Assembly (NCBI GenBank): GCA_017478185.1
Contig: JAFVEA010000009.1
Location: 370,527-434,526 of the forward strand
Length of the DNA stretch: 64,000 nucleotides
Origin: Clostridia bacterium
GTDB lineage: Bacteria; Bacillota; Clostridia; Christensenellales; UBA1242
Reading direction: 5' to 3'
A program made the position numbers and the translations under genes. Shown here piece after piece: positions 10,882 through 42,390 of the stretch (its first letter is position 1; every line of letters starts with the position of its first letter). The notes under the pieces are model-generated. The model was not told the DNA's origin. It saw nothing but the letters and a program-made list of their open reading frames with translations, and made no database searches.

Positions 10882-10974
10882 TTTTTTCTCCTTAAATTTT
10901 TTATATTTTTTGTATTTTATTATCTTTTGCTTTAAAAGTGTGGAAATCTCACTTGTTTGGCGCTTTTATTCTAT

Positions 10975-11006
10975 GCCATTGTGAGGGCTCTGCCCGTGGC
11001 AATCTC
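10975..11006 (+). repeat. solitary copy of the nested-hairpin repeat family
   Basis: GCCATTGTGAG-GGCTCTGCCC-GTGGCAATCTC matches the GTCATTGCGAG...GTGGCAATCTC variant seen at 41.5-42.2 kb and 45.8-46.1 kb. Confidence 0.7.
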
Positions 11007-23977: not shown

Positions 23978-26900
23978 TTATTTAACCTTCATTTTTGTTC
24001 TAAACATCACAAACAAAACAATAACGGCAATAACAACCAAAACACCAACAACAATAAGTATGATTGCAGCTGTGTTTAATGGTTTTGTTATCGTTATTCT
24101 CTGGCTGGAGATGAGAGAACCACTTTTTGAATAGATTTGAACAATATGTGTTCCAACTTCAGAAACTCTGAAAGAAACTTTTTCATTTTGTGAATTTTCT
24201 TCATCAATTGTTGCAACAATGTTGTCATTAACCTTTATATAACAATTTCCAACTTGTTCAAAAATGTTTGATGGGTTATATTCAACACTAAACGATTTTG
24301 TTGAAGAACTTCCCCAGCTCCTTGATGGAGAAATCAAGTTTGAAATCTCATCATTTAGCCAAATATCAAATGAATATTGTTCTTCAACCATTAAAGATGA
24401 GTTAACAGTAACAGTTATTTTATAGCGTCCAGCTCCAACATCTTGAGGCGATAACTTAAAGCTTTCAAGTTTGTTAACACCAAAAAGGCTTTTTAAACTG
24501 CTTGTTATATCTTCATCATTGTTTTCAATGCCTTGTTCAGATTCTTCATCTTTTGTGTAGGTGATTCTTTGAACGGTTGAAACATAATAACCATAAGTTT
24601 TTGCAAAATCATAAACAGTTTTTGCTTCATTTTTGTCAAGAATTGTAAATTGTGCTGTTGCAGATAAAACAACTGTTTGTGATGAATTGGTGTTTAATGG
24701 AGCGCTAATGTCAACCTTATAATATCCAGCCTCCACAAACGTCCAAGAGGTGTTATCGTTTTTAATGAAATCATTATATGGAGCATTGTTTCTTAAAATG
24801 CTGATTTGCACGCGACTTAAGTCATAATTGTTAGCATCATCAAGAGATAATTTTATTCCCTCATCAGTTTTGTTGTAGGTTGCATTTTGAATAGGGTTTT
24901 TGTTGTTTATAAAATAATTTACTTCATTTAATATGAGTAGGGTAAATGTGTCTGTTTTTGTATTACCATCACCAAAATATTGAACTTGACCCACAGCATC
25001 ATAAATTTTTATTTCATATTTTCCACTTTTTGTTAAAATGATGTCATCATAAACTTTTCCCGTCTCAACACTATTATTATATTTTATTTCTAAATATACA
25101 AAATTTGGCGCTATTTCTTCAGTTTTGCCCCAAGTAAGTTTAACATAGGTTGGATTTCCGCTACTTGTTGGATAAATCGTTGTTGTTGTTTTTGTACCTA
25201 TTCCTGAAAATTGTGAATCTAAAAAGTTATTTGTTGTTGATGTGGAATATTGTAGCGTTGTTAAGTTACTAGCTGGAGAAACTTTTGTTATTGCACAATA
25301 AGTTGTTAGATTTTCATTAGAAATTTTATATATTTTTGTGTTTGTATCTGTTGTTTCCGTTGTTACATCCGTTATATCAAAGTCTTGCGCTTCGTTTGGC
25401 AATATTCTTAAATCATTCCACGCATTTTCTAAATTAGACAAGAAGAAATAGTGATAAATATATTTTGTGGAGTCTTCCACTTCATAAGGATATCTATAGT
25501 TGTTCACTGTGTGAGGGGAGAGCTTTTCACCAGCAAAATAAACGCTATAAAGGTCAGAAGTTGCTTCTTTTTTGCTAAAGTTTATTGTGCGAACATTTAT
25601 AACGCCCAAGTCACTTTTAATAATAACGCTATAATCTCCTAATTTATATACTTTATAACCGCTTACTATTGGAATTGTATTATTATCATTAACAACATAA
25701 ACTCTTGGGTTAAACAAAAAGCTATTATTTGGTGTAAATGTTATAATAGTGGTTTTTGAAGTGAATTTTTGTTTGTCGTTTGACGTTAAATCTTCATTTG
25801 CCCACAAAGCTCTGCCAGAGTCATCGGTTAACATTATTTCTTGGGCATATGTATAAATTCCAAAATTATATGTTGTTTTGTTGTTGTCAATGTCAATTAA
25901 AACAATTTCATATGTTAAATGCCTATTTTTTATTGCATTAAAGCTTATTGTAACAACAGAAGTTTGAGAATCTAAGCTTTGTGAAATATATTGTGAATTC
26001 ATATTACAAACATTAACCAAGCTGTTTTCAACTCCATAAGTTGTGTAGGGCAAATCTTTTACGTCAAGAATAACTTCGTCAGCATTAACATCATAAATTT
26101 TTATACTTATTCTGTCATCTTTGCCAGTTACATAATTAAATAGAGTGGTGTTTGGTGTGTAAGGTATGTTGTCATAAACATATGGGGAGCTTTCTTCAAA
26201 AACAAGACCTTTTACCATTTCAGTTGTTGGATAAGTGAATTTATAAATTCTTCCAAAGTTATCTATAAAGCTAAAATTGTATTTATAATAAGATTCAAAC
26301 AAATCAAAAGATAATTTTGTTTGTGAGCTTCTTGATGTGTTTAAATTCAACAAATTGATTTGCGGTGAGCTGTTGTCATATTGAAGTTGAGAATCATTTC
26401 GCCTTATTTCAAAATTCGAATATTTTGTTGAATAAGTGTCTGCTGGCATTGTTATTCTAAATTTTCTATTGTCAATGCGCTCTGGATATAATTCAGAAAT
26501 GCCTATTTCTCTTCCTGGAGTTAACAAATAAAAATCAATATCTTTTCCGCTTCGGTTGTTAAAGATTAATCTTATTTGAGCTCCGTTAGAAGAAGAATTT
26601 AATGCAATCACTTGTCTTAGCCAATCATTTAAAAATTCTATGATTTCATTTTTGTTTTTATATTTGTTTAAAATACTGTCTTTTTTATCCTGACTTAGGT
26701 TTTGATTGTTTCTTATTGAAAGCAAATAATTTTGAGGAGCAACATTAAAAACATATTCACGCAAAAAGTCTTGACCCACATTTCCGTTTTCTAGGCTGAA
26801 TGAAACTTTATACCAAGAATCATTAATTTTAAAATTGTTTGAGTTTAAAACAAATGATGTAACGCTAAGTGATGGGGTGGTGGTTGTGTTATAAGTTGTG

Positions 26901-29900
26901 TTTGAAGTTGTTTCTTGAATCATAAAAGTTTTTTCACCATTTTCATCTGTTTTTGATGAAAATTTAAAGTTAAGTTCATCAGTTGTGAAGTTTGAACCAG
27001 TTGTGGTTAACAAAACTTCATCGTCTGTTTTTGCTATAAAAATTGTATAAACTCTGTGATTTCCAGCTTCATCAACCTCAACAATATCAAAATATCCACT
27101 CACGCTTAGTTGAGTTGTATATTCGTTTGAAGAAAAGCTGTCTTTACTAAATCTTAAGTTTGTGTAGGTGTTATAATCATCACTTTCAGGAATAACTGTT
27201 TGTTTTGGATAAATTGTTCCATCATATTTGTCATCAACTTGTTTATAATAATAAAATTTTCCGTTATCACTTAAATCCAAAGTGCTAAAACTTGAAACAT
27301 CAAAGCTTGAACCAACATTAAAAGCATAATATTTTAAAAACTCATAATCGTGATTGTTTAAATTTCTTTTCATGTCAGCTTTTTGCGAATCTGTTAAATA
27401 AGTGTCATTTTCTATCAAGTTTAACAAACCTTTATAAGGTGAAATATTGTCAATATAAACGCTGTTTGTTGCTGAATAGTAATCTCCATAGATGTTTTCA
27501 TTTCCTATATAATTTATTGTTAATGAATAGAAGTAGTCAGTGTTTTTGCTGTTTTTAGGCAAAATGATATAATAATCATATCTATCTTCGCCAGGAATTT
27601 TAACTCTATAAAACAAAACTCCGCTATTTAAAACAAAATCAGTTAAATCCTCGCCAGAGTAGGTGCCATTTATTCTTTGAATTTCAGGTTCACTAAAACC
27701 GTTTGGATTGCTTGCATCATATTCTCGAACTTTATAATCGTTTTCTTGTGAAGGAGAAATTGATTCCTCTTGCGTTGTCATAACTCCGTCATCGTTTAAG
27801 GTGAAAGAGGTTCTTTTTAAAGTCCAACTTTTGTAGGCAATTTTTGCACGGTAAGGGTCAATCGTGTCACTAAATTTAAACACAACATAATTGTCATTGT
27901 TTGTGTAGGCATAAGTTCCATCAACATTTGCTTTTAATTCTGCTTTTTTTAATTGTGAGTGTGTTGAGCTGTTTTGTATTTCAATTTGTGGAGTGGTTTT
28001 AAGTATTTTAAAAGATAAGCTAACAACATTTGGCACAAAATTTTCGCTATTCCAAAGATCTAAATGACTCCAATCTGTTACTTTTGATGATGCTAAATTT
28101 GCATAGTCACAAACAATAATTCTATAAATTCCAATTTCATTAAATTTGTAAGTTAGCAAGCTACTGAATGGTTCTACGCCATTTGATGAAGAATTAACAT
28201 CTGGTGAATACAAAGTTTGTGACTTAAAAGTGGAATTTTCATTAAAACATTGAACAATTGCCAAAAGCTTTTGATTACTATATTTAGTTCCACTTAAATT
28301 TGAAATAACAATAGGCAACATATTTGTGTTTATGTTTGCAACAGCAGGAGCTTTTATATCAGTGTTAATGTTAAATTCATTTTTAGCGTTTGATTGATTT
28401 CCAAAAGAGTTGAAATAAAATATTTTTGTTGATTCGGCTTCTGTGTAACCCCTAATTGTTTCACCCAATGTTAATTTTGCATTACGCATAGGGTCTATGC
28501 TTCGGTCAACATAGGCTGTGTAAGTTCTTGTAAAAACATCTCCTCTTGAATTTGCTTCATCAAATGCAGTTTTATTAACATAATATCTTGTGAAAACATA
28601 TTTTCCTTGAAGTGTTAGTCCGTTTGGCCCAACGTTTAATGCTGAAGATTGATAATAAGTTCCTGTTGTGTCACCGTCATCGTCATCAGAAGTTGTTGGT
28701 GTCCAGAACACGTTTGATTCCATTCCAGTTCTGGTGTTGGTGAAAATAACATATTCTATTGGAGTGGAGCTGTATGGATTGTTATTGTCTTGATAGGTTA
28801 GTTCATAAAAAGAAAGTGTTATTTTTTCAACTTCAAAAGCGCTTCCGCTATTTGCTTGCTTAAAACTAAATGTCAAGAAATCTCTGTTTGAAATCATATT
28901 TTCAGAAAGTCTTTGTCTGTTTTTGTTTTCGCCTTCATTTGTTGTGTCTGAAATTCCTGTTATATCAATTTGCTCGCTGTGGCTAAAAATTCTTCCGTCC
29001 GATTTATCTAATGAAACATTTTTAGACAAAGTTTTTCTGTTGTTTAAGATGTCGTAGGCAGAAACGCTTAAATTGATATTTTTTGTTAAGTCATAAGCTT
29101 TTCCTTCTTGATTTTCAGTTGATGAAATATAAGCATAAAACTTCTTATTATTTTCTGTTATAACAACATAAGCTGACTGACCAGAAAAAGTTCTTTCATT
29201 CATTTCTGCTTTAGATATTTTTTGAGTGTAATAGAAGTTATTGTTTGAATCCGTTCTAAAGTAGTTTTCAAGTGCATTTGAAATTGTTTCATTTAAAGAG
29301 TAGGTGTTGCCACCCATTTCTATTGAGGTTGTTAAGTTCTTTAAAACATCTTTAACTTGAGATGCGTCAAGCGCTTTATAAGCTCCCCAAGTGAATTTTG
29401 TTGTGGTGTTAACAAGGTCAGTTGTTGTTTGTGTGGATTCTCCAATTCGCTCTTGAATAATTTCTGGAGTTATAGAGTCATAAATGGTTGCAAAACTTGC
29501 GGTGTTTCCGGCCTCATCTTCCAAAAGAAGAATTGCAAAGCAGTTTGAAGAAATGATTTGCTCTGAATTAAAAGGTTCGGTTATGTTTGTGTGTGCATAA
29601 TTTGGGCCTCTCTTAAAATCAGAGAACATTCCATTTGCTGTAACCCAAACTTCATTATTGCCAGACAGTTTTGTTAATTCAAAATCTGGTTTTGAAGTTA
29701 AGTTTGAATAATAATAACTTGCTGTGATTTTTGCTCCACTTGCTTTTTCGTCCCAACTCCAAACAAATGGGGTGTTAACAGTTAAGTCAAAATCGCTTGG
29801 GTTAGTAGTTAGGCTAGACAAAACATTATTAGCTTTGTTGCTAGAGTCAACAGAGTAGGCGCGTATTCCAGAAATAGCGTTTGTGTCAATTGTAAAAGTT

Positions 29901-32521
29901 CGAATAATTGATGAATTTTTGTTGTATTTTATGCGAACAACATATTTTCCATCTCCACTAAAAAGAGTTGGATTTACTTCCAAAATTTCTCCATTTTTGT
30001 CATAAACAAGCCCTTTTAGCGTTGCGTCTGAAATTTCTTTTGTTCCGTCAAAGTTAAATTTGTCATAAGTTGCTGTGATTGGTGTGTCAAATTCATTGTT
30101 TTTAAGCCATTCCACAAACACACGCTTGTTTGTGAATGAGTTTGAAGAAAGTTCGTTTCCACTTCTTGAGATTATGTTTTTTGAATCTGTTTCATCTGTT
30201 GATTTAACAGACACTGTTGGCTGAGAATTTGTTATTCTAAAAGCCAAAACTTGTTGAACATACTTAGCACTATCAACACTATCATCACTGGCATTGTTTT
30301 TAAATGACAAAAACACAAAATAAAGTCCAGCGGCAGAAAATGAAACAGAATTTGTGTAATCATCAACTTCTTCAATTTTACCACTATCACTCACATAAAC
30401 ATACCACATAGAGTTTGCCGAATTGTTTTTTGTTGCGTTATATCTAAGAGAAACTGGAGTTTGGTTTGTTGAAACAAGCCTATTTTTGTTTATGTATATT
30501 TGTTTTGTGCCAAGGTTTAACACGCCTTCACTATAATTTGATGGAGTTGTCTTTTCAAAAACAGCAGAACTTCCTGATGCCGCAGTTAACAAATATGAAA
30601 AATCACTATAAAAATTTTCATTATTTAAAAATTTAACATAAGTTTCATTATCTCTATTATCTCTATAAATTGCTTGATAACCATTGATGTGGATTGTGTT
30701 TGAAATGTTTTGAATGCTTCCTGTTGTTGCGTTTATGCCGTCAGTTTTATAATAAGTTCCGTCAGCAATCTTAAGCTTATATTGCTGGCTTATGGCATAA
30801 TCTCCAATTTCTTTAAATGTGTGATAAGCAATAAATGGCGCATCCAAGTTATATTCACAAACAGTTTTTAAAACTTTGTTATAATAATATGTTTTGTTAT
30901 TTAATGAAATTTTGCCATCAACAGCATTATCATATGTTGTGTTATTATAATCAAAACTAACCAAAGTATCACTTGAAATGTTTAGGTTTTCATAACCTGT
31001 GAGTTTTTCAGTTTTTCTATAAATTGTTTTTTGTTCAATTTGAGTTTTTGAGCCTGTGTTATCTATTTTTGACAAAGTTAATGTTCCATATAAATCATCA
31101 TCAGCAACAAAATCAAAAGTATAATTTTCTATATAACTATAAAGTGTTTTTTCAAAGCTTATCGAATATTTTTCTGGGTTATAAGAAATGGTTGGGTATA
31201 AAAGTTTATCCGTCCACATCCACTTGTCTGTTTTGCTGTCTTTATAAGCAAGCCCTCTAACGCCACCAACTTCAACTTGATAATAAACATCTGTGGTTAT
31301 TTCGATTGCTTCCACATTTTCTTCTTCACCATTGTTATAACTTAAAGTTCCATTCGAAAGCTCTGCACCATCCAAAACTTTTGCATCAAGGTCAAGCAAG
31401 TTGTTTGTTAAAATGTTGTTAAAACCAAAGTAGTGGTCTTTTTGAGTTGTTGTTGTTAAAACAGAGTTAACATTATAAAAATTTAAAAGTTCATTTGTGT
31501 TGGAGTAGGTGTTTGATGTTGTTAAATAAAAAATAAATTGTGCAGTTAACGTTTCTTCAAATCCTGATCCTGGATTAATTCTATAGGTTGTGTTAAAATC
31601 ATACTTACCTTCCAAGCTTTCAAGGTTTTTTGGGCTTGAACTGCTATTTTCTTTTGTGTAAGCAGAACTTGAAATGCCACAGTCATTAATAATTGATGCT
31701 GGAAGTCCGTGATATTCTTTATAGTAGTAAGAATGAACGGTGTCACTGTCTAGCTTTGTTCCAGCAGAATCAATTAAGCTTCCATTATAATTTGTTGAGG
31801 CTTGGTCAATATAATAATTTCCGCCTGGGCCACTAATTTTTATTTGAACTGCCTCGTGGGAAGCAAAAGTTGTGTCTGAAGTCCAAACTGCTGTTTTGGC
31901 GCTACTGTCATAGTTTGAAATTGTTCCATTATTAGAATTTGTTTCAAAAAGATTTCCAAAATTTGTTTGAGTTGTTGTCAAGGTGCTTCCATTTGCTAAG
32001 GTGTCGTAGTCTTCAGTGTAACTTACGCCATTATATGTATAAGAAAAAGTGTTGTTTGTTTCATTTATTGTTAAGTTTAAAACAAGTGGTTTTGTTTTGA
32101 ACCAAAAAAATTTTTTCAAAGTTTCACTATAATAAGCAACACCATTTGTTCCACCAACTTGAACTTTATAGCCTGTTTTTACATCTATTGTTGTGACCTC
32201 GTTTGATGTTGTTAATTCTGTTCCATTAAAATATGTTAAAGTGTTTCCGCTAACTGTTGCATTAGTAAGCTCTGTGTAACTGTCAAGATACACAAAAGGG
32301 TTGCCATTTTCATCAACATCATCCAAAATTATTTCTCGTTCACTTAATATATTATTTGTTTTGTTGTCAACCGTTATTATAGTGGCTTCTATTGCCCCTA
32401 TATTAGCTGCAGCGTTAACTTGTTTTTGCTGAAACAAAAAAGCTCCCAAAAATGATAGTATAGCCAAAACAATTAGTGCCATACTGCCTAAAATTGAATA
32501 TCTTAAAGTGTTTTTTTGCAT
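23978..32521 (-). CDS. giant cell-surface protein (2847 aa) with an N-terminal signal/TM segment and a C-terminal TM anchor; putative adhesin
   Basis: AAGGAG lies 6 nt before the ATG at 32521 (MQKNTLRYSILGSMALIVLAILSFLGAFL). The C-terminus is AAIILIVVGVLVVIAVIVLFVMFRTKMKVK. The composition is N/T/S/Y-rich and beta-like, with an internally repeated ~65-aa module (..VQVGGTNGVAYY.. / ..VEVGGVRGLAYK..). Confidence 0.85.
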   Translation of the reverse strand: MQKNTLRYSILGSMALIVLAILSFLGAFLFQQKQVNAAANIGAIEATIITVDNKTNNILSEREIILDDVDENGNPFVYLDSYTELTNATVSGNTLTYFNGTELTTSNEVTTIDVKTGYKVQVGGTNGVAYYSETLKKFFWFKTKPLVLNLTINETNNTFSYTYNGVSYTEDYDTLANGSTLTTTQTNFGNLFETNSNNGTISNYDSSAKTAVWTSDTTFASHEAVQIKISGPGGNYYIDQASTNYNGSLIDSAGTKLDSDTVHSYYYKEYHGLPASIINDCGISSSAYTKENSSSSPKNLESLEGKYDFNTTYRINPGSGFEETLTAQFIFYLTTSNTYSNTNELLNFYNVNSVLTTTTQKDHYFGFNNILTNNLLDLDAKVLDGAELSNGTLSYNNGEEENVEAIEITTDVYYQVEVGGVRGLAYKDSKTDKWMWTDKLLYPTISYNPEKYSISFEKTLYSYIENYTFDFVADDDLYGTLTLSKIDNTGSKTQIEQKTIYRKTEKLTGYENLNISSDTLVSFDYNNTTYDNAVDGKISLNNKTYYYNKVLKTVCEYNLDAPFIAYHTFKEIGDYAISQQYKLKIADGTYYKTDGINATTGSIQNISNTIHINGYQAIYRDNRDNETYVKFLNNENFYSDFSYLLTAASGSSAVFEKTTPSNYSEGVLNLGTKQIYINKNRLVSTNQTPVSLRYNATKNNSANSMWYVYVSDSGKIEEVDDYTNSVSFSAAGLYFVFLSFKNNASDDSVDSAKYVQQVLAFRITNSQPTVSVKSTDETDSKNIISRSGNELSSNSFTNKRVFVEWLKNNEFDTPITATYDKFNFDGTKEISDATLKGLVYDKNGEILEVNPTLFSGDGKYVVRIKYNKNSSIIRTFTIDTNAISGIRAYSVDSSNKANNVLSSLTTNPSDFDLTVNTPFVWSWDEKASGAKITASYYYSNLTSKPDFELTKLSGNNEVWVTANGMFSDFKRGPNYAHTNITEPFNSEQIISSNCFAILLLEDEAGNTASFATIYDSITPEIIQERIGESTQTTTDLVNTTTKFTWGAYKALDASQVKDVLKNLTTSIEMGGNTYSLNETISNALENYFRTDSNNNFYYTQKISKAEMNERTFSGQSAYVVITENNKKFYAYISSTENQEGKAYDLTKNINLSVSAYDILNNRKTLSKNVSLDKSDGRIFSHSEQIDITGISDTTNEGENKNRQRLSENMISNRDFLTFSFKQANSGSAFEVEKITLSFYELTYQDNNNPYSSTPIEYVIFTNTRTGMESNVFWTPTTSDDDDGDTTGTYYQSSALNVGPNGLTLQGKYVFTRYYVNKTAFDEANSRGDVFTRTYTAYVDRSIDPMRNAKLTLGETIRGYTEAESTKIFYFNSFGNQSNAKNEFNINTDIKAPAVANINTNMLPIVISNLSGTKYSNQKLLAIVQCFNENSTFKSQTLYSPDVNSSSNGVEPFSSLLTYKFNEIGIYRIIVCDYANLASSKVTDWSHLDLWNSENFVPNVVSLSFKILKTTPQIEIQNSSTHSQLKKAELKANVDGTYAYTNNDNYVVFKFSDTIDPYRAKIAYKSWTLKRTSFTLNDDGVMTTQEESISPSQENDYKVREYDASNPNGFSEPEIQRINGTYSGEDLTDFVLNSGVLFYRVKIPGEDRYDYYIILPKNSKNTDYFYSLTINYIGNENIYGDYYSATNSVYIDNISPYKGLLNLIENDTYLTDSQKADMKRNLNNHDYEFLKYYAFNVGSSFDVSSFSTLDLSDNGKFYYYKQVDDKYDGTIYPKQTVIPESDDYNTYTNLRFSKDSFSSNEYTTQLSVSGYFDIVEVDEAGNHRVYTIFIAKTDDEVLLTTTGSNFTTDELNFKFSSKTDENGEKTFMIQETTSNTTYNTTTTPSLSVTSFVLNSNNFKINDSWYKVSFSLENGNVGQDFLREYVFNVAPQNYLLSIRNNQNLSQDKKDSILNKYKNKNEIIEFLNDWLRQVIALNSSSNGAQIRLIFNNRSGKDIDFYLLTPGREIGISELYPERIDNRKFRITMPADTYSTKYSNFEIRRNDSQLQYDNSSPQINLLNLNTSRSSQTKLSFDLFESYYKYNFSFIDNFGRIYKFTYPTTEMVKGLVFEESSPYVYDNIPYTPNTTLFNYVTGKDDRISIKIYDVNADEVILDVKDLPYTTYGVENSLVNVCNMNSQYISQSLDSQTSVVTISFNAIKNRHLTYEIVLIDIDNNKTTYNFGIYTYAQEIMLTDDSGRALWANEDLTSNDKQKFTSKTTIITFTPNNSFLFNPRVYVVNDNNTIPIVSGYKVYKLGDYSVIIKSDLGVINVRTINFSKKEATSDLYSVYFAGEKLSPHTVNNYRYPYEVEDSTKYIYHYFFLSNLENAWNDLRILPNEAQDFDITDVTTETTDTNTKIYKISNENLTTYCAITKVSPASNLTTLQYSTSTTNNFLDSQFSGIGTKTTTTIYPTSSGNPTYVKLTWGKTEEIAPNFVYLEIKYNNSVETGKVYDDIILTKSGKYEIKIYDAVGQVQYFGDGNTKTDTFTLLILNEVNYFINNKNPIQNATYNKTDEGIKLSLDDANNYDLSRVQISILRNNAPYNDFIKNDNTSWTFVEAGYYKVDISAPLNTNSSQTVVLSATAQFTILDKNEAKTVYDFAKTYGYYVSTVQRITYTKDEESEQGIENNDEDITSSLKSLFGVNKLESFKLSPQDVGAGRYKITVTVNSSLMVEEQYSFDIWLNDEISNLISPSRSWGSSSTKSFSVEYNPSNIFEQVGNCYIKVNDNIVATIDEENSQNEKVSFRVSEVGTHIVQIYSKSGSLISSQRITITKPLNTAAIILIVVGVLVVIAVIVLFVMFRTKMKVK

Positions 32522-32720
32522 ATTAAACTCCTTTGACTTTTGTTTTCCCGACCAAATTGCAAAGAATAATTTTGTCATTTACTTACAAAATTTTAACATA
32601 TTATGCCTTTTTTTACAACTAAAAACAAAGAAAATTGAAAAATTTATCACAAATATTTTTAGTTTTTTTAAAAATTTATATACACAAAATTTTAATTTTT
32701 TATATTTTATAAATATAACA

Positions 32721-32761: not shown

Positions 32762-34726
32762 TTAATTTTCTTTAAGAACCATTTTGTTTCTTCTTCGAAT
32801 GTCATAATAAACTTTTTCTGTATCCAAATATCTTGCAGGCTTATAAACTTGTGGGGCAGGGCTCATATCATAGATGTTTGGAGCACGCCAAGCAAATGTA
32901 AAGGTGCTTCGAATTGCACTTTCTTTAAACATAGAAACAATGATTTCACCTTCTTTTAAAAGGCCTAATTCATCAACAGTTATAAGTCTAACGCTTGTTT
33001 TGTTTGTTGAAACAGAAGTTGTGTCTTGTTTTGAATCCTTTCCTTTGTTTTTGGTTGTTGATGTTGTGTCAACTGAAGTGCTTCCACATCGGAGTGAAAA
33101 GTCTTCTTTTGTTTTGGCATCAGTGGTTCCCAAGAAGTAGTGGATGTTACAGTTTGATTTAATTGTGTCGGCAACGGCATCGCCATATTTCATATTTAGC
33201 TGTGTGTAACTTTGAACAACCAAGAACACACTAATCCTACGGCTACGCCCAACTGTTATGATGGAATCAAATTTTGGGATTTTTGGCAAGTTTCCAAACT
33301 CATCCAAAATGAAGAACACTTTTCTAGGCAATTGAAGTTTTGGTGTTTTGCTGGCTGTTTCAACAAGCGTTTTATAAAGCTGAATGATGCACATAACAGC
33401 AATTGAGTGACGAGTGTCTTTTTCATCAGGGGCTTGAACAAATAGGGCGGTTGGCTGGTCGGTGAAGTGTTCAAAATCCATTTCGTTTCCACTTGTTGCA
33501 AAACAAATTCCTTCATCGGCAAAAGAACTTAGGTTACTTGAAACAATTCCCATATATCCTCTAATTGTTGTTCCAGCGTTGTTTATAATAGGGCTTGCAA
33601 GTTGCATTGCGTTAGAAAGCTTGCTTCTGCCTTGAAAATATTCTTGAAGTGATGCAAATTGGTTGTCTGGGTCATCATCTCTAAGGTTGCAAATCTTATA
33701 TAAATTAAAAAGATTAAACCTATCTTTTGTCATGCCAAGCTCTGGAATGGCGCTATCCTCAAGCATTGCAAGCATAACTCCCAAAACAAAGTCTTTTGCT
33801 CCTCTCTCCCAAGTTGCTCCATCTCCAGTTGATTGTTGAGGGCAAAGGGTGGTTGCAATGTCGTTTAAATCTTCATAAGCATCATCTTGCAAGCGCTTTT
33901 TTAAAGCAATCAAGTCATTGTCAAGCATAGTTTTGGTTGGGTAGGCCCTCCCTTCAAATTCATACCATTCAGTGTTATAAACATCCCCAATCTTTTGTAG
34001 CTTATATGCCTCAGGGGTGCCACCAGTGTGAACTTTAACCTCATTATATAAGTGCAAGCTTCGCTGAAACGCCAAAAATGGTTTTTCCATAGGGTTCCAA
34101 CGGCTGGATGAAAAGGTGTCACGCAAATTTAGGGCAACAACTTTGTAACCCATTTTTTTGAGGTGTTCACTGTGGTCACGATAAAGTTCACCTTTCATAT
34201 CATTTATAACAAGCCCAGGCTTATCTTGGCAAGAACTCAAAATTTGAATGGTTGGGTTAACAAATCCGGCAGATTTACCAACACCAGTGGTACCTATTAC
34301 CAGCGCATGCCAGTCTTCATACTTAAAGTTTATGTGAATATCTCCGCCTTTAAGCTCAGCCCTTAGTGGAATCCCCGCCTTAACGCTTCCAAGGTGTTTA
34401 AATGTTACGGCAGTATATTTTTTGTTCATTTCTTGTTCAGTTAGCCATTTTGAATCAAAAAATTGTTTGGTTTCTGGTTTTTTCTCTTTTTTGCTACTTT
34501 TAAACAAAGCGCCTTTTTTTTCGTCAGTTACTCTAAGCAAAAAGAACAGCAAAAACACAAGTGCCAAAACAAAACCAAAAATGTTAGCGTATGTGCTTTC
34601 AAACATTGTGTCAAAGTCAATTTCAGTGAAGCCTGAGTCCATTGCGCTTCCCAAAATTGCTCCAGCAAAATAACATATTGCAATCATAACAACTGCAAAA
34701 ATAATGTATTTAAAAATTGCTCTCAT
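32762..34726 (-). CDS. VirD4/TraG-type type IV coupling protein (T4CP)
   Basis: Two N-terminal TM segments. Walker A is LVIGTTGVGKSAG, Walker B is VFFILDEFGNLPKIP, followed by GRSRRISVFLVVQSYTQLNMKYG, the characteristic TraG/VirD4 pattern. GGAGG lies 6 nt before the ATG at 34726. Confidence 0.85.
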   Translation of the reverse strand: MRAIFKYIIFAVVMIAICYFAGAILGSAMDSGFTEIDFDTMFESTYANIFGFVLALVFLLFFLLRVTDEKKGALFKSSKKEKKPETKQFFDSKWLTEQEMNKKYTAVTFKHLGSVKAGIPLRAELKGGDIHINFKYEDWHALVIGTTGVGKSAGFVNPTIQILSSCQDKPGLVINDMKGELYRDHSEHLKKMGYKVVALNLRDTFSSSRWNPMEKPFLAFQRSLHLYNEVKVHTGGTPEAYKLQKIGDVYNTEWYEFEGRAYPTKTMLDNDLIALKKRLQDDAYEDLNDIATTLCPQQSTGDGATWERGAKDFVLGVMLAMLEDSAIPELGMTKDRFNLFNLYKICNLRDDDPDNQFASLQEYFQGRSKLSNAMQLASPIINNAGTTIRGYMGIVSSNLSSFADEGICFATSGNEMDFEHFTDQPTALFVQAPDEKDTRHSIAVMCIIQLYKTLVETASKTPKLQLPRKVFFILDEFGNLPKIPKFDSIITVGRSRRISVFLVVQSYTQLNMKYGDAVADTIKSNCNIHYFLGTTDAKTKEDFSLRCGSTSVDTTSTTKNKGKDSKQDTTSVSTNKTSVRLITVDELGLLKEGEIIVSMFKESAIRSTFTFAWRAPNIYDMSPAPQVYKPARYLDTEKVYYDIRRRNKMVLKEN

Positions 34727-34755
34727 TTTTTCCTCCAACAAGTTTTTATGTTTTC

Positions 34756-34993: not shown

Positions 34994-35347
34994 ATGGACT
35001 TTTTTAGTTTGGCAATGGGTATGATGAATTTGCTTGCTTCTAATTCTGGATTAAGTTCAGTGGCAAAAAACATTTTTGATATCTCAAAAACTGTTTTAGT
35101 GCCTATTATGGTTCTTGTGGGTGTTGGTGGAGTTTTCTATTCAATTTATTTGGGAGTTAACATGGCAAGGGCAGACAGCTCAGACAAAAGAGAAGAAGCC
35201 AAAAAGAGAATGGTAAATGCAATAATTGGATTTGTTGTTATCTTTGTTTTAGTCACACTTATGTATTTGTTTGCAGCAAACGCAGATTCTATATTTGGAG
35301 GTATTGGACCAGATACGCCAAATATAAGCGAAGAAAAAACAGCATAA
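34994..35347 (+). CDS. small two-TM protein, putative T4SS pilin (VirB2/TrbC or T4SS_pilin-like)
   Basis: 117 aa with a GGGAGGG RBS. It has a hydrophobic leader and TM1 (VLVPIMVLVGVGGVFYSIYLGV), then a short charged loop (ARADSSDKREEAKKRM) and TM2 (VNAIIGFVVIFVLVTLMYLF). This topology and the loop-AK-x-x-h-x-x-hIG pattern are typical of T4SS pilins. It is the first gene of the plus-strand T4SS-like set. Confidence 0.5.
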   Translation: MDFFSLAMGMMNLLASNSGLSSVAKNIFDISKTVLVPIMVLVGVGGVFYSIYLGVNMARADSSDKREEAKKRMVNAIIGFVVIFVLVTLMYLFAANADSIFGGIGPDTPNISEEKTA

Positions 35348-38285: not shown

Positions 38286-38396
38286 CATAAAAATTGGTTT
38301 TTTTGGCAAAATAAAAATATATTTGTATTTTTTTGTTAAATTTGTTGGACTTTAATTTTTATATTTGTTAAAATTTATAAAAAAGGAGGTTGCTTG

Positions 38397-41348
38397 ATGG
38401 ATTTTTTCATGATAGGTAATTGCTTGATGACTTTTTTCATGCTTGGTGCTGATGATACGTTGCACAAAGCTCTTGATGTTTTGAGGAAAAACAACCCTAT
38501 TTTTGAAGGAATTGGTGTTATTTGGGATACTGTAACTGGTGACCCTATAGGAAATATAGCATCAGAAATATCAACATTTTTTACAGGAACAATAATGCCA
38601 ATCATAACTGCTCCTATCGCGTTTTTATTGTATTCTTTTCAAGTGGGCTTCTTTTATTTAATTGATTGTGTTCAAGCAATTTTTAAATCCATGGCAGGGC
38701 TTTCTGTTCATTATAAAGATGGAGAGGTTAAGGGCGCCATAGATGACAGCGCTTTACCTGAAGATATTGTTGTTTCGATGATCCAAAGCAATGTTATAAT
38801 GGATGTTTTTTGGTCTGTTTTGGTGGCCTCAGTTATGCTTGTTTTTATTATGTCCATAATAGCCATTGTCCGGCAAGAATTCACCGAGCAAGGTGCGGGC
38901 AATTCAAAAACAAAGATTATAGGAAAAGCCATAAAAGCAATAGCCTATTTTGCAATTGTTCCTATTGTTTGTATTGGCGGAATTTATATTTCAAACATCT
39001 TTTTAAGAACTTTTGACAAAGTCACATCAAACGGCTCTTATTCGCTTAGCCGAACAGTGTTTTACGCAGCGGCGCAAGGAGCAAACAGATTGGCTAATTC
39101 TGAAGAAAGATATAACAAATTGATGCATGGTGATGATCAGTGGAAGAAAGATGTTCGACAAGTTTTAGGAATTAGTAGTTATGCTGGCACAGATTTTGAG
39201 GTTGGTGATAATGCCAATAATGTGGCCCATGCTATTGATAATGCGTTTTTACGAGATTTAGATAATAATATAAAATATGTCAATTATGTTGCGATTAATT
39301 TAAACTTATCTGATAAAAGCGTAACTTATTATGCTCGTCCCACACCACAAAATCCAGTTGTTTATTTGATGAATGTAAAAACTGACACTATAGATAATAA
39401 GACATATATGGTGAGTGAGGAGTTGGCCGTCATTAATGATAAGTATGTTAGTATGGATTTTAGTAAATTTATAACATTCACCGTAGATGAGAATGGTTTT
39501 TACACATATAAATGGAATGGCGATCAACTTGAAGCAACGCGTACAATAGTGGAAAGCGTTGGTTGTAATCCATCAGATGTTAAAGAGCCTACCTTCCCTA
39601 CTTTCGACAAGAAAAGACTTTATATTAAGACTGGAGGCCTTGATGATATTCCTATGCTTGGTTTATTCTTAATAAATGGTGTTGATATAAACTTCACCAC
39701 CTTTTCAATCACGAACATACAGCTTGTTTTCTATTTTTATGATTTGTTTATGGGGTATAACTATATTCTAGGCTATGTTGGTGGCTTTACGGCTGCAATG
39801 TTGTTGCTTTCAACCTGCCTTGGGCTAATTCAAAGAATTTATGAGCTTGTCATATTGTTTGTGATTTCGCCAGCATTTATTTCATTCATGCCACTTGATG
39901 ACGGCAAAAAATATGAAGGTTGGCGAGCTCAGTTTGTTAGCCGTGTTGGAATGGCATATGGGCCAGTTATTGGAATAAACCTTATGTTCATTGTTTTGGC
40001 AGAACTTCAACACATAACAATCTTCCCAACTGGAGGCATAAACACATTGTTTAACGCAATTGTGAACCTAATCTTCATGATTGTTGGGCTTTTGGCTGTT
40101 AAAGAGTTTTCATCAATGATTTCAGGCCTTTTGGGGCAAAGCGATGCCCTAAAAACTGGTGAAGGCTTAAAAGAAGGCACTCAAAAAATGGCTGGCAGAA
40201 TTGCTGGTGGAACCATTTCCGCCGCAAGAACTGGACAGGCGATTACAAAGGCAGCATATGCAAGCACTTTTGGGAGAAGTGGAAAACAGACGGGTGCTAG
40301 AGGCTGGGTAAATAGAAGGATGGGAATAAACAGTAAAAAAGATTCAGATGAAAAGAAGTTAGGAAATCAAATGAAAGCAATGCTTAATGGAGATAAAAGT
40401 GAAATTGGTGGTGCTTGGCAACAATTTACAAAATCAGCAGGAAAAGGTTTTGAACGTTATTTAACCCAAAAAGGAATTGCCGGAGCAACTGAAAATGGGG
40501 AATCTTTTGTTGGAGCGTTGCCATTTTGGAAGACAAAAAAAGGAAGAGGCACTATTACAGAAAGAGATAAAGATAAAAAAGAGGATAAAGAGGCAGCTGA
40601 TGCTAAGAAAACTAAAAGAACTGAACTTGATACAGAAAAAGAGTGGAAAGAAGAACAAGCTGCCAAAAAACACAACATTCTTCCTGTGGGAGAAGTTGAT
40701 AAAGCAACTGGGAAAAAGAAGGAAGCATATACTGAAGATGAGCAAAAAGTTATTGATGAAGAACTAAAATCAGGTGGCGCAGGAGGTGGCGCAACTGGAG
40801 AAGGCAGTGCAGGCTCTGGTGGAAATGTTGAAACCTTTAATGCTCAAGTGTTAAATGTTGGTGGTGTTAATGGGAAAGGCGAAGCTGCAGATAACAATAT
40901 TAATGTTGAAAACCCAGATGAAGTTACTGTTGAAGCACCGCCAGAAGGCATGGATGATGAAACCTTGAATGCGATGTCTGCCGCTATGGGTAACCCAGTT
41001 ACAGTTGAGACAAATGAAACCAATGTTAATAGTGATGAAACAGAAGATGACGTTAATAGTGCTGAGATTAACAATGAACAAGCAGAAACCCAAAAAGATG
41101 GCGAGAAAAGTGAGGAGAAGACTCAAGATGTCAATGTTAAGAATCAAGTTGGTGTTAAAGCAAACGACGGACAAAAGGTTTCAATAATAACTGAATCATT
41201 AGGCCCATTGGTAACAAAACTAGAGAGAGTTGTGGACGGACTTATTGATTTGAAACAAGGCATAAAAGATCAAACAGAGATAATAAAAACCTTAAGTGTT
41301 TCTAAAAAAGCCTCAGGATCTTTCTTTGGACGCCTTAGAGGAAAATGA
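38397..41348 (+). CDS. polytopic membrane protein, VirB6/TrbL-like T4SS channel candidate, with a ~400-aa charged C-terminal tail
   Basis: GGAGG lies 7 nt before the ATG at 38397. About 7-8 TM segments surround a ~200-aa loop. The core LIQRIYELVILFVISPAFISFMPLDDGKKYEGWRAQFVSRV resembles the conserved VirB6/TrbL-type core. From about nt 40140 the sequence is K/E/D/G-rich and low-complexity. Confidence 0.6.
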   Translation: MDFFMIGNCLMTFFMLGADDTLHKALDVLRKNNPIFEGIGVIWDTVTGDPIGNIASEISTFFTGTIMPIITAPIAFLLYSFQVGFFYLIDCVQAIFKSMAGLSVHYKDGEVKGAIDDSALPEDIVVSMIQSNVIMDVFWSVLVASVMLVFIMSIIAIVRQEFTEQGAGNSKTKIIGKAIKAIAYFAIVPIVCIGGIYISNIFLRTFDKVTSNGSYSLSRTVFYAAAQGANRLANSEERYNKLMHGDDQWKKDVRQVLGISSYAGTDFEVGDNANNVAHAIDNAFLRDLDNNIKYVNYVAINLNLSDKSVTYYARPTPQNPVVYLMNVKTDTIDNKTYMVSEELAVINDKYVSMDFSKFITFTVDENGFYTYKWNGDQLEATRTIVESVGCNPSDVKEPTFPTFDKKRLYIKTGGLDDIPMLGLFLINGVDINFTTFSITNIQLVFYFYDLFMGYNYILGYVGGFTAAMLLLSTCLGLIQRIYELVILFVISPAFISFMPLDDGKKYEGWRAQFVSRVGMAYGPVIGINLMFIVLAELQHITIFPTGGINTLFNAIVNLIFMIVGLLAVKEFSSMISGLLGQSDALKTGEGLKEGTQKMAGRIAGGTISAARTGQAITKAAYASTFGRSGKQTGARGWVNRRMGINSKKDSDEKKLGNQMKAMLNGDKSEIGGAWQQFTKSAGKGFERYLTQKGIAGATENGESFVGALPFWKTKKGRGTITERDKDKKEDKEAADAKKTKRTELDTEKEWKEEQAAKKHNILPVGEVDKATGKKKEAYTEDEQKVIDEELKSGGAGGGATGEGSAGSGGNVETFNAQVLNVGGVNGKGEAADNNINVENPDEVTVEAPPEGMDDETLNAMSAAMGNPVTVETNETNVNSDETEDDVNSAEINNEQAETQKDGEKSEEKTQDVNVKNQVGVKANDGQKVSIITESLGPLVTKLERVVDGLIDLKQGIKDQTEIIKTLSVSKKASGSFFGRLRGK

Positions 41349-41480
41349 AATTAAATTATTGAGATAAAACACTTCAAAACACCCAAGATAAACCACGGGA
41401 CAAAAAAGCTTAAAAAAGATAACGGGGCAAATAAAAAGCCTTAAACAAAAAGCTTTGTTTAACACAAAGGTTAAGAACAA

Positions 41481-41508
41481 AAAAAGCACAAAATTTGTGC
41501 TTTTTTTG
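41481..41508 (+). terminator. intrinsic terminator after the VirB6-like gene
   Basis: AGCACAAA/TTTGTGCT hairpin followed by T7. Confidence 0.65.
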
Positions 41509-41536
41509 TTGTTTTTAGAGATGAGGTTTATTTTTT

Positions 41537-41742
41537 GTCATTCTGAGGAGGCACGAAGTGCCGACGTGAGAATCTCAGAGATTGCCACAGCCCTAAAGGG
41601 CTTCGCAATGACATAAAGGAGTTGAGATTGCCACGCAAGATAAATCCTGCTCGCAATGACAGAGGAGGAGTGTCATTCTGAGAAACGAAGTCTCTATTCT
41701 CTGTCATTCTGAGGAGGCACGAAGTGCCGACGTGAGAATCTC
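41537..41742. repeat. cluster of nested-hairpin repeats (5 units, both orientations)
   Basis: Two identical 40-mers, GTCATTCTGAGGAGGCACGAAGTGCCGACGTGAGAATCTC, lie at 41537-41576 and 41703-41742. Reverse-orientation units GAGATTGCCAC...CGCAATGACA lie at 41578-41613 and 41624-41661. A degenerate unit lies at 41672-41701. Confidence 0.9.
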
Positions 41743-41778
41743 CTTGACAAAGTTTTTTTATTGTTATAGACTTATTCT

Positions 41779-42057
41779 ATGGAATATTATGTTTACATTT
41801 TAAGCAATAAAACAAATAGTGTTTTATATGTTGGAGTTACAAATAATTTAGTAAAGCGTGTTTTTGAACATAAAAGCAAAGTCATTGAAGGCTTTACAAA
41901 AAAATATAACATTAATAAATTGATTTATTATGAAATAACAACAGATATTTATAGTGCGATAACACGAGAAAAACAAATTAAAAGTTGGAATAGAAAAAGA
42001 AAAATTGATTTAATTGCAACAACTAACCCTGATTTTAAAGAGCTTGATATAGTATGA
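41779..42057 (+). CDS. small GIY-YIG nuclease family protein (COG2827/UPF0213-like, 92 aa)
   Basis: YVYILSNKTNSVLYVGVTNNLVKRVFEHK and REKQIKSWNRKRKIDLI are hallmark motifs. There is no SD. TTGACA at 41744-41749 abuts the upstream repeat. Confidence 0.85.
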   Translation: MEYYVYILSNKTNSVLYVGVTNNLVKRVFEHKSKVIEGFTKKYNINKLIYYEITTDIYSAITREKQIKSWNRKRKIDLIATTNPDFKELDIV

Positions 42058-42064
42058 TAATTCA

Positions 42065-42249
42065 GAGATTGCCACAGCCCTAAAGGGCTTCGCAATGACA
42101 TAAAATATAAGTAAAGTCCCATGCAATAAAATGACATAAAATATAAGTAAAGCCCCGTGCAATAACAAGAAGAAAAATTATTCTGAAATAAAAAAGCTAT
42201 TTCAACCCACCTGTCATTCTGAGCAAAACTTGTTTTGCGTGAGAATCTC
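42065..42249. repeat. repeat cluster downstream of the GIY-YIG gene
   Basis: 42065-42100 is identical to 41578-41613 (36 nt). A tandem 36-bp direct repeat lies at 42095-42130 and 42131-42166. The unit GTCATTCTGAGCAAAACTTGTTTTGCGTGAGAATCTC lies at 42213-42249. Confidence 0.9.
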
Positions 42250-42325
42250 TTGTAATTAAAAGTAAATGAACAAGATTTTTTTTGCTTCTATCCGCGAAAA
42301 AATCTTCTAAGAACTTTTGTGGGTT

Positions 42326-42390
42326 AACATACAAAGCTGTTGTTTTTTGTATGTTTTTTTGCAAAAAGGCCAAAAATGTTTGGCTTTTTT
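42326..42390 (+). terminator. two consecutive terminator-like hairpins
   Basis: AACATACAAA/TTTGTATGTT followed by T6 (42326-42360), and GCCAAA/TTTGGC followed by T6 (42363-42390). Confidence 0.55.

Follow-up and report, generated by a model that had tools for sequence, protein, structure and literature searches.

The ssn gene and its setting

A short gene of the Ssn type (ssn) was found at 41779-42057 (+) of the window, the whole stretch of 64,000 nucleotides that was analysed. It lies between a VirB6-like gene (Mbov_0396-family) and a VirB4-like gene (Mbov_0397-family) of a conjugation-type T4SS set, where an earlier note on this DNA had placed the insertion. The open reading frame is intact, starts with ATG and encodes, as that note had read it, a 92-aa GIY-YIG protein, residues 3-76 of which matched PF01541 with E=9e-17. 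No domain besides GIY-YIG was detected in the product, the length of which is within the size range of the Ssn nucleases (<150 aa, about 94 aa).

The Ssn family and the repeats called NTS/SRM were defined by Chenal et al. 2025 (Nat Commun 16:2388; PMC11893778). The SsnA protein of Neisseria meningitidis, which has 94 aa and is assigned to cd10448 (GIY-YIG_unchar_3), cleaves ssDNA alone, leaving RNA and the reverse strand uncut and RNA unbound (PMC11893778). The characterised members have no dsDNA activity; their target is their own flanking repeat in single-stranded DNA, an oriented hairpin to which the protein binds; the strand is hydrolysed on the 5' side of this hairpin, a few nucleotides away (PMC11893778). 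Cleavage of ssDNA only and in a strand-specific manner was reported for four homologues, and DNA bearing the repeats transforms less (PMC11893778). The described homologues are mostly Gram-negative, and both the role of Ssn outside Neisseria and the mobility of the repeat-gene-repeat module were left open in 2025 (PMC11893778).

The authors of the family count as Ssn those proteins whose BLAST match to Neisseria SsnA has E<1e-10 and covers at least 75%. When the 94-aa N. gonorrhoeae orthologue of SsnA, which sits amid canonical NTS repeats, was used as the reference, the 92-aa product showed 46% identity over 100% coverage without internal gaps (E=8e-23 by tblastn in 7.3 Gb; E=4e-33 pairwise). 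Residues Y6, Y17, R27, H31 and E64 were invariant across 28 homologues, and Y6, Y17 and E64 aligned with the same positions of the Neisseria protein, in which the changes Y6A, Y17A and E64A abolished cleavage (PMC11893778). Because of the full-length identity and the conserved catalytic residues, it is highly probable that the product is a member of the Ssn family, by homology a site-specific ssDNA endonuclease. The repeats on either side of the gene would then be the NTS-like 'Ssn-related motifs' that it recognises. Only a single genome had a 100%-identical protein, the closest homologue after it being 70% identical. Exact-sequence look-up of the 92-aa product returned no record, the gene as called in ENA having 93 aa, and the PDB sequence search gave no relative of solved structure at E<=0.01. 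Nothing relevant came from a literature search on GIY-YIG with REP or MITE, and also on COG2827/YhbQ. The sole match in the PADLOC defence assignment, to UzuA, was at chance level (15 bits) and was rejected.

The TTGACA abutting the end of a repeat unit (41744-41749) and the TATAGA at 41765-41770, which had been put forward as the promoter of the gene, were both present. As the second element, however, the promoter scan favoured TAGACT over TATAGA, giving a promoter-like site, TTGACA-17-TAGACT (41744-41772, +), which is a consensus match only (10/12) and ends 6 nt before the ATG. The absence of a Shine-Dalgarno sequence was likewise confirmed, no purine-rich one being found within 20 nt upstream of the ATG; neighbouring genes have one. 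The expression of ssn is thus uncertain. A leaderless ssn mRNA would plausibly fit this geometry, and it would not be a feature of the family, as most of the Firmicutes homologues carry a Shine-Dalgarno sequence.

Relatives with a VirB4 74-82% identical to that of the window share the terminator and promoter anchors of the spacer. The comparison proposed earlier as a search for an empty site found neither ssn nor repeat units in the terminator-promoter spacer of 5/6 related lineages, and only solo units in the sixth. The same relatives set the bounds of the inserted block at about 41515-42380, instead of the 41537-42249 first proposed. The spacer between the two T4SS genes has thus acquired the whole block of ~0.87 kb. 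A second ENA assembly, made independently from this strain and differing by 6 mismatches over 11 kb, has the identical island, which is therefore no assembly artefact.

A presence/absence polymorphism among relatives, a GIY-YIG domain, and weak matches both to a model of group I intron endonucleases and to a family of homing endonucleases from phages would all agree with a free-standing GIY-YIG homing endonuclease of the phage Seg or I-TevI type, which cuts the empty dsDNA allele and is copied in by repair. We consider this explanation very improbable, because the product has 92 aa without a DNA-binding domain, its score for that intron endonuclease model (TIGR01453) was 19.3 bits, where the cut-off is 56, no homologue was found among 50,697 phage genomes, the characterised Ssn members recognise their own flanking repeat and not dsDNA, and the repeats were found also without the gene. 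I-TevI and SegA-G do have the GIY-YIG catalytic domain, but theirs are proteins of 200-250 aa with C-terminal DNA-binding modules, which cut dsDNA of the empty allele and are typical of phages and introns. The proposal of a 'homing or REP-associated type' was consequently retained in its second half, as an analogy with REP/RAYT, and abandoned in its first.

The repeat units

Two separate pairs of direct repeats had been described in this region. The identical 36-bp pair, GAGATTGCCACAGCCCTAAAGGGCTTCGCAATGACA, occurred as two exact copies in the window (41578-41613 and 42065-42100), where shuffles expect none, and its exact identity reached 43 nt (41575-41617 and 42062-42104), the 92-aa open reading frame lying in the region between. 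The further pair, given as 40 identical bp, was also found, but it comprises 48 nt at 96% identity (41529-41576 and 41695-41742) with an exact 41-nt core (41536-41576 and 41702-41742). They are not separate pairs: all these copies, like the other repeats in the window, belong to one family of oriented hairpins, present on both strands in units of 36-41 nt.

The consensus of the unit was TGTC-ATTSY-GAG-(variable inner hairpin)-GTG-RSAAT-CTC, with the head TGTC and the tail C(TC) kept in 8/8 intact units. The 5-bp outer stem is of two types, ATTCT/AGAAT (A) or ATTGC/GCAAT (B), and a GAG/GTG internal loop separates it from an inner hairpin that covaries freely; compensatory double changes were seen in 7/11 stem pairs. 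The units fold as ssDNA with -5 to -9 kcal/mol. A-type units were on the + strand and B-type units on the - strand in both of the clusters described below, the exception being a degenerate B-type unit with a TGCC head on the + strand at 10974-11006, in the spacer upstream of aspS.

In the first cluster, unit A1 (41536-41576, +; TGTC-ATTCT-GAG..GTG-AGAAT-CTC, -6.5 kcal/mol) and unit B1 (41578-41613, -; TGTC-ATTGC-GAA..GTG-GCAAT-CTC on the - strand) form the left and right halves of a doublet that lacks the gene. They are followed by unit B2 (41624-41661, -; -5.1 kcal/mol), the inner hairpin of which differs, and by a truncated or degenerate A-type unit (41671-41701, +) with an intact head, TGTCATTCTGAG, and a decayed tail. 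Unit A2 (41702-41742, +), identical to A1 over 41 nt, ends 36 nt before the ATG of ssn, and unit B3 (42065-42100, -), identical to B1, starts 7 nt past its stop codon. Two tandem 36-nt copies, 94% identical (42094-42165), correspond to partial B-unit tails (..GCAATAAAATGACA), and unit A3 (42212-42249, +) stands alone. The second cluster, which has no nuclease gene, extends over 45740-46115. It consists of a partial B-type unit reduced to its tail (45740-45770, -; GAAATTGCCAC..), a degenerate A-type unit (45777-45817, +) with TGTT for TGTC and a weakened inner stem, whose fold was no better than that of shuffles, a degenerate B-type unit with the head GGC for GTC (45889-45925, -), an intact B-type unit (46004-46039, -; -9.0 kcal/mol), a partial A-type unit (46048-46077, +; GGTTATTCTGAG..) and an intact A-type unit (46078-46115, +). 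The last one adjoins the 3' end of mnmA and is identical to A3 in 37/38 nt, with unrelated flanks.

The published SRM search string (HGTCWYN(0-2)YYVSBRHN(0-5)WNVSBRGN(0-2)RNCYNB, with an SRM on both sides within 500 bp) had 0 matches anywhere in the window, and allowing loops of up to 25 nt did not change this; in the gonococcal locus it recognised 9 sites, and it recognises the NTS consensus as well. As the units of the window are longer and bipartite, their membership in the repeat family rests on the architecture and on the GTC and C determinants, of which GTC 5' of the palindrome controls cutting and C 3' of it binding (PMC11893778). The gene was indeed flanked by oriented hairpins (41702-41742, +, and 42065-42100, -) having GTC 5' and C 3' of the palindrome, which is what the repeat criterion for Ssn describes, for hairpins of 20-50 nt. 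Among the 80 closest-homologue loci, the string matched 17 on any side and missed 63. The bipartite variant is widespread among the closest homologues and is missed by the published string, so surveys using this string may undercount the association of gene and repeat.

Two outer-stem types and one ssn gene were present in the window. Since an altered palindrome sequence abolished the activity of the Neisseria enzyme (PMC11893778), one of the two types may be orphaned, or it may be served by a paralogue outside the window.

The loose pattern 'GTC + 5-nt arm .. arm + C' was unspecific alone (15 matches in the window versus 10.8 in shuffles) and served solely for positional enrichment, against an internal background. 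When the flanks of the best hairpins were tabulated without bias, TGTC was the top 5' flank; this tabulation was noisy, the best hairpins being mostly inner stems.

Arrangement and dispersal of the units

The architecture was surveyed at the 80 closest-homologue loci, which belong to many phyla. A (+) unit was located at most 120 nt upstream of the gene in 54/80 loci and a (-) unit at most 120 nt downstream in 51/80, bearing out the proposed tie between the nuclease gene and hairpin repeats. Both together were found in 36/80 loci, the background being 0.03 per window. Adjacent units at the homologous loci mostly alternated (120 inverted vs 37 direct pairs), and about a fifth of these loci were at contig ends. 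The conserved bracket of ssn is an inverted pair, (+) upstream and (-) downstream, formed here by 41702-41742 and 42065-42100, and not the direct repeats by which the gene had been thought to be bracketed.

The units are intergenic and close to terminators, and their hairpins could work at the RNA level only, as terminators, mRNA stabilisers or regulators, with the proximity of the nuclease being incidental. The stabilisation of mRNA by REP-like hairpins is established. We nevertheless give this interpretation hardly any weight, because the TGTC/CTC flanks are invariant and non-palindromic, the orientation relative to the gene is conserved across the survey on both sides of it, the units lie on either strand, Rfam contained no matching family and RNA is not bound by SsnA (PMC11893778). 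The Rfam search gave nothing at gathering thresholds in the whole window, and the sub-threshold matches in the island were all on the upstream terminator (41476-41510), none on the units. A hammerhead ribozyme (CTGAGGA..GAC) was discarded by eye, its core motifs varying among copies.

With A2 as its left end (LE) and B3 as its right end (RE), the gene-bearing module LE(+)-ssn-RE(-) covers ~400 nt (41702-42100). The gene-less LE.RE doublet that adjoins it has 89 nt (41529-41617) and corresponds to 41695-41742 plus 42062-42104, with a 2-nt TC junction and 2 mismatches; it is an exact internal-deletion derivative of the gene-bearing module. The direct-repeat identity around the gene exists because this gene-less copy of both module ends adjoins the full module. 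Units identical in 37/38 and 45/48 nt occupied different spacers, their identity ending exactly at TGTC and CTC. No duplicated flank was found around the doublet or around the units compared between unrelated sites. The module and its units are putatively mobile.

According to the mechanism that we propose, the protein would cut 5' of the TGTCATT.. units, whichever strand displays them. The LE being on the top strand and the RE on the bottom strand, it would produce nicks just outside both module ends. It may thus trim ssDNA near the T4SS genes as this DNA enters or is replicated, may spread its own repeats in a REP/RAYT-like manner, or both.

There is a real, though not prevailing, chance that the module is now, or was recently, an autonomous mobile element, a GIY-YIG analogue of REP/RAYT or IS200/IS605 with propagation, not host function, as its primary role. 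The LE.RE doublets and solo units would then be non-autonomous REPIN/MITE-like derivatives, spread by the nuclease on ssDNA. This explanation overlaps with the Ssn explanation and differs from it on the primary role. The block is absent in relatives, another relative carries solo units at that spacer, the doublet is an exact deletion derivative, near-identical units with sharp boundaries occur at unrelated sites, the arrays alternate in orientation as in BIMEs, the predicted nicks fall just outside both module ends and about a fifth of the homologue loci are at contig ends, all of which speak for such an element. The Ssn authors themselves likened REP-associated systems to Ssn and raised the same hypothesis of repeat mobility (PMC11893778). 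However, GIY-YIG enzymes hydrolyse DNA without passing through a covalent intermediate, and host functions would be needed to rejoin the strands; a second copy of the exact gene was not seen, the identical protein being restricted to one genome; neither a target-site duplication nor a conserved target was evident at the units compared; no Ssn is known to transpose; and gene conversion between units could imitate dispersal.

Comparison with known systems

The assignment to the Ssn family is in agreement with the likeness of the locus to SsnA/NTS, which extends from the proteins (~92-94 aa, a single GIY-YIG domain, 46% identity, Y6, Y17 and E64) to the oriented hairpin repeats, whose stem is preceded by GTC (5') and followed by C (3'), and to the placement of these repeats, since the repeats both flank the gene and form gene-less clusters beside membrane- or surface-protein genes. 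In contrast with SsnA/NTS, the units here are 36-41 nt long, bipartite and outside the published SRM string, and one of their two outer-stem types forms the left end, the other the right. The host is an uncultured low-GC Clostridia MAG and the locus is in a conjugation-type T4SS set; moreover, the locus shows a polymorphic insertion and a deletion derivative that lacks the gene.

The REP/BIME/REPIN repeats and their RAYT are comparable in having a small nuclease gene between inverted copies of a short extragenic hairpin, and in forming alternating doublets and arrays across intergenic spacers, the units here being dispersed repeats by the criterion used for such systems. The hairpin is recognised there in ssDNA, as is predicted here from the homology with Ssn. 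In contrast, no HUH/Y1 tyrosine transposase is encoded here, a hydrolytic GIY-YIG enzyme being found instead, which would provide no covalent 5'-phosphotyrosine intermediate for strand rejoining.

IS200/IS605 elements (TnpA, 'peel and paste') also have distinct subterminal hairpins at their left and right ends, and no classical terminal inverted repeats, and act in an ssDNA-dependent manner, as predicted for the present module. A target-site duplication is not evident in them, and no duplicated flank was seen around the doublet and the units compared here. They differ in the catalytic fold and in having ends on the same strand, whereas the ends of the module are inverted (opposite strands) and its transposition is putative.

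It seems rather unlikely that the LE-ssn-RE modules and LE.RE doublets are bacterial mobile elements of a new class, one that depends on ssDNA and has a hydrolytic GIY-YIG nuclease as its driving enzyme. If they did, the class would parallel REP/RAYT and IS200/IS605 functionally with a distinct mechanism, and the locus would be a recent insertion beside its own non-autonomous derivative, within a conjugative, ssDNA-transferring T4SS set. The locus is a compact case, in which a full module stands beside its exact gene-less derivative, with empty sites in close relatives and sharp-ended units across spacers. Each new pair of Ssn and repeat is, in addition, a candidate sequence-specific ssDNA-cutting reagent.

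Hairpin repeat units of the island

The sequence GAGATTGCCACAGCCCTAAAGGGCTTCGCAATGACA was found in two exact copies (41578-41613 and 42065-42100), one on each side of ssn, the 92-aa GIY-YIG gene at 41779-42057 (+); the exact identity around this pair reached 43 nt, and shuffled sequences gave no match like it. Upstream of ssn, the segments 41529-41576 and 41695-41742 were 96% identical with an exact core of 41 nt, which corresponds to the further 40-bp pair reported in an earlier note on this DNA. Since an identical island was present in an ENA assembly obtained independently from the same strain (6 mismatches over 11 kb), the repeats cannot be put down to faulty assembly.

When read on the proper strand, every repeat copy was one kind of 36-41-nt unit, made up in order of a TGTC head, one arm of 5 nt (ATTCT or ATTGC), the triplet GAG, a short inner hairpin that varies, the triplet GTG, the arm that pairs with the first (AGAAT or GCAAT) and a CTC tail. 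Units with ATTCT arms were named A-type and those with ATTGC arms B-type; compensatory changes separated the two. When nine units were aligned, 7 of the 11 predicted pairs were seen to be maintained by changes on both sides, and the TGTC head, the ATT/AAT stem base and the CTC tail never varied. For the intact units, ssDNA folding gave values from -5 to -9 kcal/mol. All eight intact units of the window retained GTC 5' and C 3' of the outer stem, and the three decayed ones were altered exactly at the head (GTT, GGC and GCC).

Only three sites of the 64-kb window, all intergenic, held units: a cluster on both strands containing ssn (41536-42249), a second one on both strands without the gene, between an 82-aa ORF and mnmA (45740-46115), and a single decayed unit (10974-11006, +). 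All A-type units of both clusters were on the (+) strand and all B-type units on the (-) strand, and the decayed unit, with an ATTGT arm, was the sole exception to this rule. By analogy with IS200/IS605, distinct ends may lie behind the asymmetry. A 36-nt tandem duplication (42094-42165, 94% identity) made of partial unit tails (..GCAATAAAATGACA) directly followed the right-end unit. Spurious ORFs crossed the units (41455-41616, +; 41528-41707, -; 41949-42137, -), giving peptides such as CHSEEARSADVRISEIATALKGFAMT; on some homologues in the databases, peptide strings derived from repeats likewise made up the C-terminal tail (..SSLRSE).

The ssn product and the Ssn family

The protein of ssn matched the Pfam GIY-YIG family (PF01541, E=9e-17, residues 3-76), and a full-text search with the repeat sequence led to the Ssn literature. 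SsnA of N. meningitidis is a 94-aa single-domain GIY-YIG protein (CDD cd10448). It binds NTS (CGTCATTCCCGCGMAVGCGGGAATCYRG), an oriented hairpin repeat, solely as ssDNA and cleaves a few nucleotides to the 5' side of this repeat; neither dsDNA nor RNA nor the reverse strand serves as substrate (Chenal et al. 2025, Nat Commun 16:2388, PMC11893778). Cutting is set by GTC, the trinucleotide on the 5' side of the palindrome, and binding by the C just 3' of it; cutting is lost in the Y6A, Y17A and E64A mutants, and knockout of ssnA raised transformation by NTS-bearing DNA about five-fold (PMC11893778). Ssn-related motifs (SRM) flank Ssn homologues across bacteria, and the NTS-ssnA-NTS arrangement was likened by the authors to an insertion sequence and to REP/RAYT, its mobility being only hypothesised (PMC11893778).

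The Neisseria orthologue used for comparison came from two N. gonorrhoeae chromosomes in PLSDB (NZ_CP119140.1 and NZ_CP119142.1; complete, 2.17 Mb, entered there as plasmids through a database error), where it is a 94-aa ORF amid canonical NTS copies. The window protein matched it over 100% of its length (tblastn, E=8e-23), and in the pairwise alignment (46% identity, 0 internal gaps, E=4e-33) Y6, Y17 and E64 coincided. These three residues, together with R27 and H31, were invariant in 28 homologues, and more than 1,400 database relatives from many phyla shared 55-70% identity with the window protein. The published SRM search string gave 0 matches in the window, whose units are longer and bipartite; as it also missed 63 of the 80 closest-homologue loci, we attribute this to a limitation of the string and not to failed kinship, but it counts as a family feature that the window lacks. 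Judged by its sequence, the window feature is a new member of the Ssn/SRM system, itself of recent description, with a variant repeat form.

The earlier note had interpreted the island as a selfish module of a homing or REP-associated type. Its observation was confirmed and its interpretation was partly right, the homing type being unsupported: the protein has 92 aa and no DNA-binding domain, it scored below the threshold of the intron-endonuclease model, no ssn homologue was found in 50,697 phage genomes, and the enzymes of this family recognise their own repeat in ssDNA.

As the same note had pointed out, no Shine-Dalgarno sequence precedes the ssn ATG, while neighbouring genes carry AGGGGA or AAGGAG. 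The TTGACA that it proposed was retained by the promoter scan, paired with a different -10 (TTGACA-17-TAGACT) that ends 6 nt 5' of the ATG, making a leaderless ssn transcript geometrically plausible. Most ssn homologues of Firmicutes have a clear Shine-Dalgarno, so its absence here is local and not a family trait.

Inverted bracket and gene-less doublet

For the flanks of 80 genomic loci of ssn homologues, a unit was defined simply as GTC, an arm of 5 nt, a loop, the arm complementary to the first and C. On the upstream side of the gene, 54 of the 80 loci had a (+) unit that ended within 120 nt, and on the downstream side 51 had a (-) unit that started within 120 nt, both occurring together in 36; the opposite orientations were found in 19 and 27 loci, respectively, and the background at more than 1 kb from the gene was ~0.03 per scanned interval. 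The bracket conserved around the gene is therefore an inverted pair, represented here by A2(+) (41702-41742) and B3(-) (42065-42100). Arms varied with lineage (ATTCCCGC, ATTGC, ATCCT, ATTTC and others) and differed between the upstream and the downstream unit in 14 of 34 genuine cases. Pairs of neighbouring units were inverted in 120 cases vs 37 direct, mostly alternating, as also happens in BIMEs.

Near-B-type units (GAGATTGCCAC..CTCGCAATGACA) flanked ssn homologues of a Dehalococcoidia (L061) and two Christensenellales (L002 and L032), distant phyla; head, arms and tail were almost those of the window B-type and the inner hairpin was different. L060 and L061 are two ssn paralogues of one MAG, each accompanied by a unit type of its own. 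About one fifth of the 80 loci were within ~1 kb of a contig end, which suggests that repeat arrays break short-read assemblies.

The 89 nt at 41529-41617 consisted of unit A1, one base and unit B1, and were equivalent to the two module ends, left (41695-41742) and right (42062-42104), fused through a TC overlap of 2 nt. The match had no more than two mismatches, each of them in the outer flank. The island thus holds the module with its gene and, 80 nt upstream of it, a copy of both module ends that lacks the gene. Autonomous elements and their internally deleted derivatives are related in this way, as are, in REP/RAYT, a RAYT-flanking REP pair and a REPIN. Bracketing direct repeats, as first described, do exist as exact copies on both sides of ssn; their direct identity is traced to the gene-less copy, the conserved bracket being the inverted pair.

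Gain of the block in the T4SS locus and possible mobility

The island was indeed located in a conjugation-type T4SS set, comprising genes for a VirD4-like coupling protein (32762-34741, -), a T4SS pilin (34994-35347), a 984-aa Mbov_0396/MMCAP2_0566-family membrane protein (38394-41348) and an Mbov_0397-family VirB4 ATPase (42438-45077; 588.7 bits vs a cut-off of 590), the last two flanking the island; the housekeeping genes mnmA, gap and fba come after the set. From the terminators previously placed after the island, the scan recovered one terminator-like hairpin (42369-42384), the AT-rich ones (42326-42360) being seen by eye only.

The search for an empty site, suggested in the earlier note, was carried out in six related lineages with VirB4 proteins 74-82% identical. 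All six had the same gene order down to mnmA and kept the VirB4 promoter/ribosome-binding site anchor, with spacers of 175-619 nt vs 1,089 nt in the window. In the two compactest (L082 and L086; 175-180 nt), two elements were recognisably kept: the terminator that follows the membrane-protein gene, and the VirB4 promoter with its ribosome-binding site (..ttatattataatttagttaaa..agggga..ATG). Neither units nor ssn left any trace across ~12 kb in five of the six lineages (tblastn, E<=10); in the sixth, L084, the corresponding spacer contained three intact units plus one that was truncated, another spacer contained two further units, and there was no ssn within 12.6 kb. The block ~41515-42380 is thus a gain between terminator and promoter. 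The second window cluster (45740-46115) was also absent in the related lineages. The five intact L084 units, in two spacers of the T4SS locus (1083-1445 and 4451-4834), were of the same family (TGTCATTCTGAGCC..CGAAGAATCTC).

The solo unit A3 (42212-42249) and the unit at 46078-46115 were identical in 37 of 38 nt, variable inner hairpin included; identity ended exactly at TGTC and CTC, and the flanks, with 3 and 4 matches in 25 positions, were unrelated. In L084, two units separated by 3.4 kb were identical in 45 of 48 nt, with flanks matching at 12 and 8 of 25 positions, the left one less cleanly unrelated. The 38-nt unit as such has either been copied or been homogenised by conversion. Three features speak for mobility, at least in the past: the insertion polymorphism, the deletion derivative and the unit copies with sharp edges. 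Autonomous transposition is opposed by the hydrolytic chemistry, the single gene copy seen and the lack of an evident target duplication. The locus offers a clean natural case to test whether Ssn modules move.

By homology, the protein would bind the units once these are exposed as ssDNA, in the lagging-strand template, incoming transforming DNA or conjugative DNA, and would nick a few nucleotides 5' of TGTC. With the left end on the top strand and the right end on the bottom one, the nicks would fall just outside both module ends. Trimming of incoming ssDNA, lessening recombination around repeat-flanked genes as shown in Neisseria, and propagation of the repeats are two possible roles, both compatible with the data.

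Elsewhere in the window, two giant ORFs (394-9084, +, 2,896 aa; 23978-32578, -, 2,866 aa), the second adjoining the VirD4-like gene, had no Pfam match at E<=1e-5. In the relatives, a highly variable gene of 723-1,514 aa that gave no Pfam hit separated the VirB4-like gene from the conserved 82-aa ORF (L082, 7718-12262; L084, 7717-10602; L086, 7715-11092; L089, 7714-10107; L091, 7734-9905); it was missing from L090 and from the window, where the site is 45077-45396.
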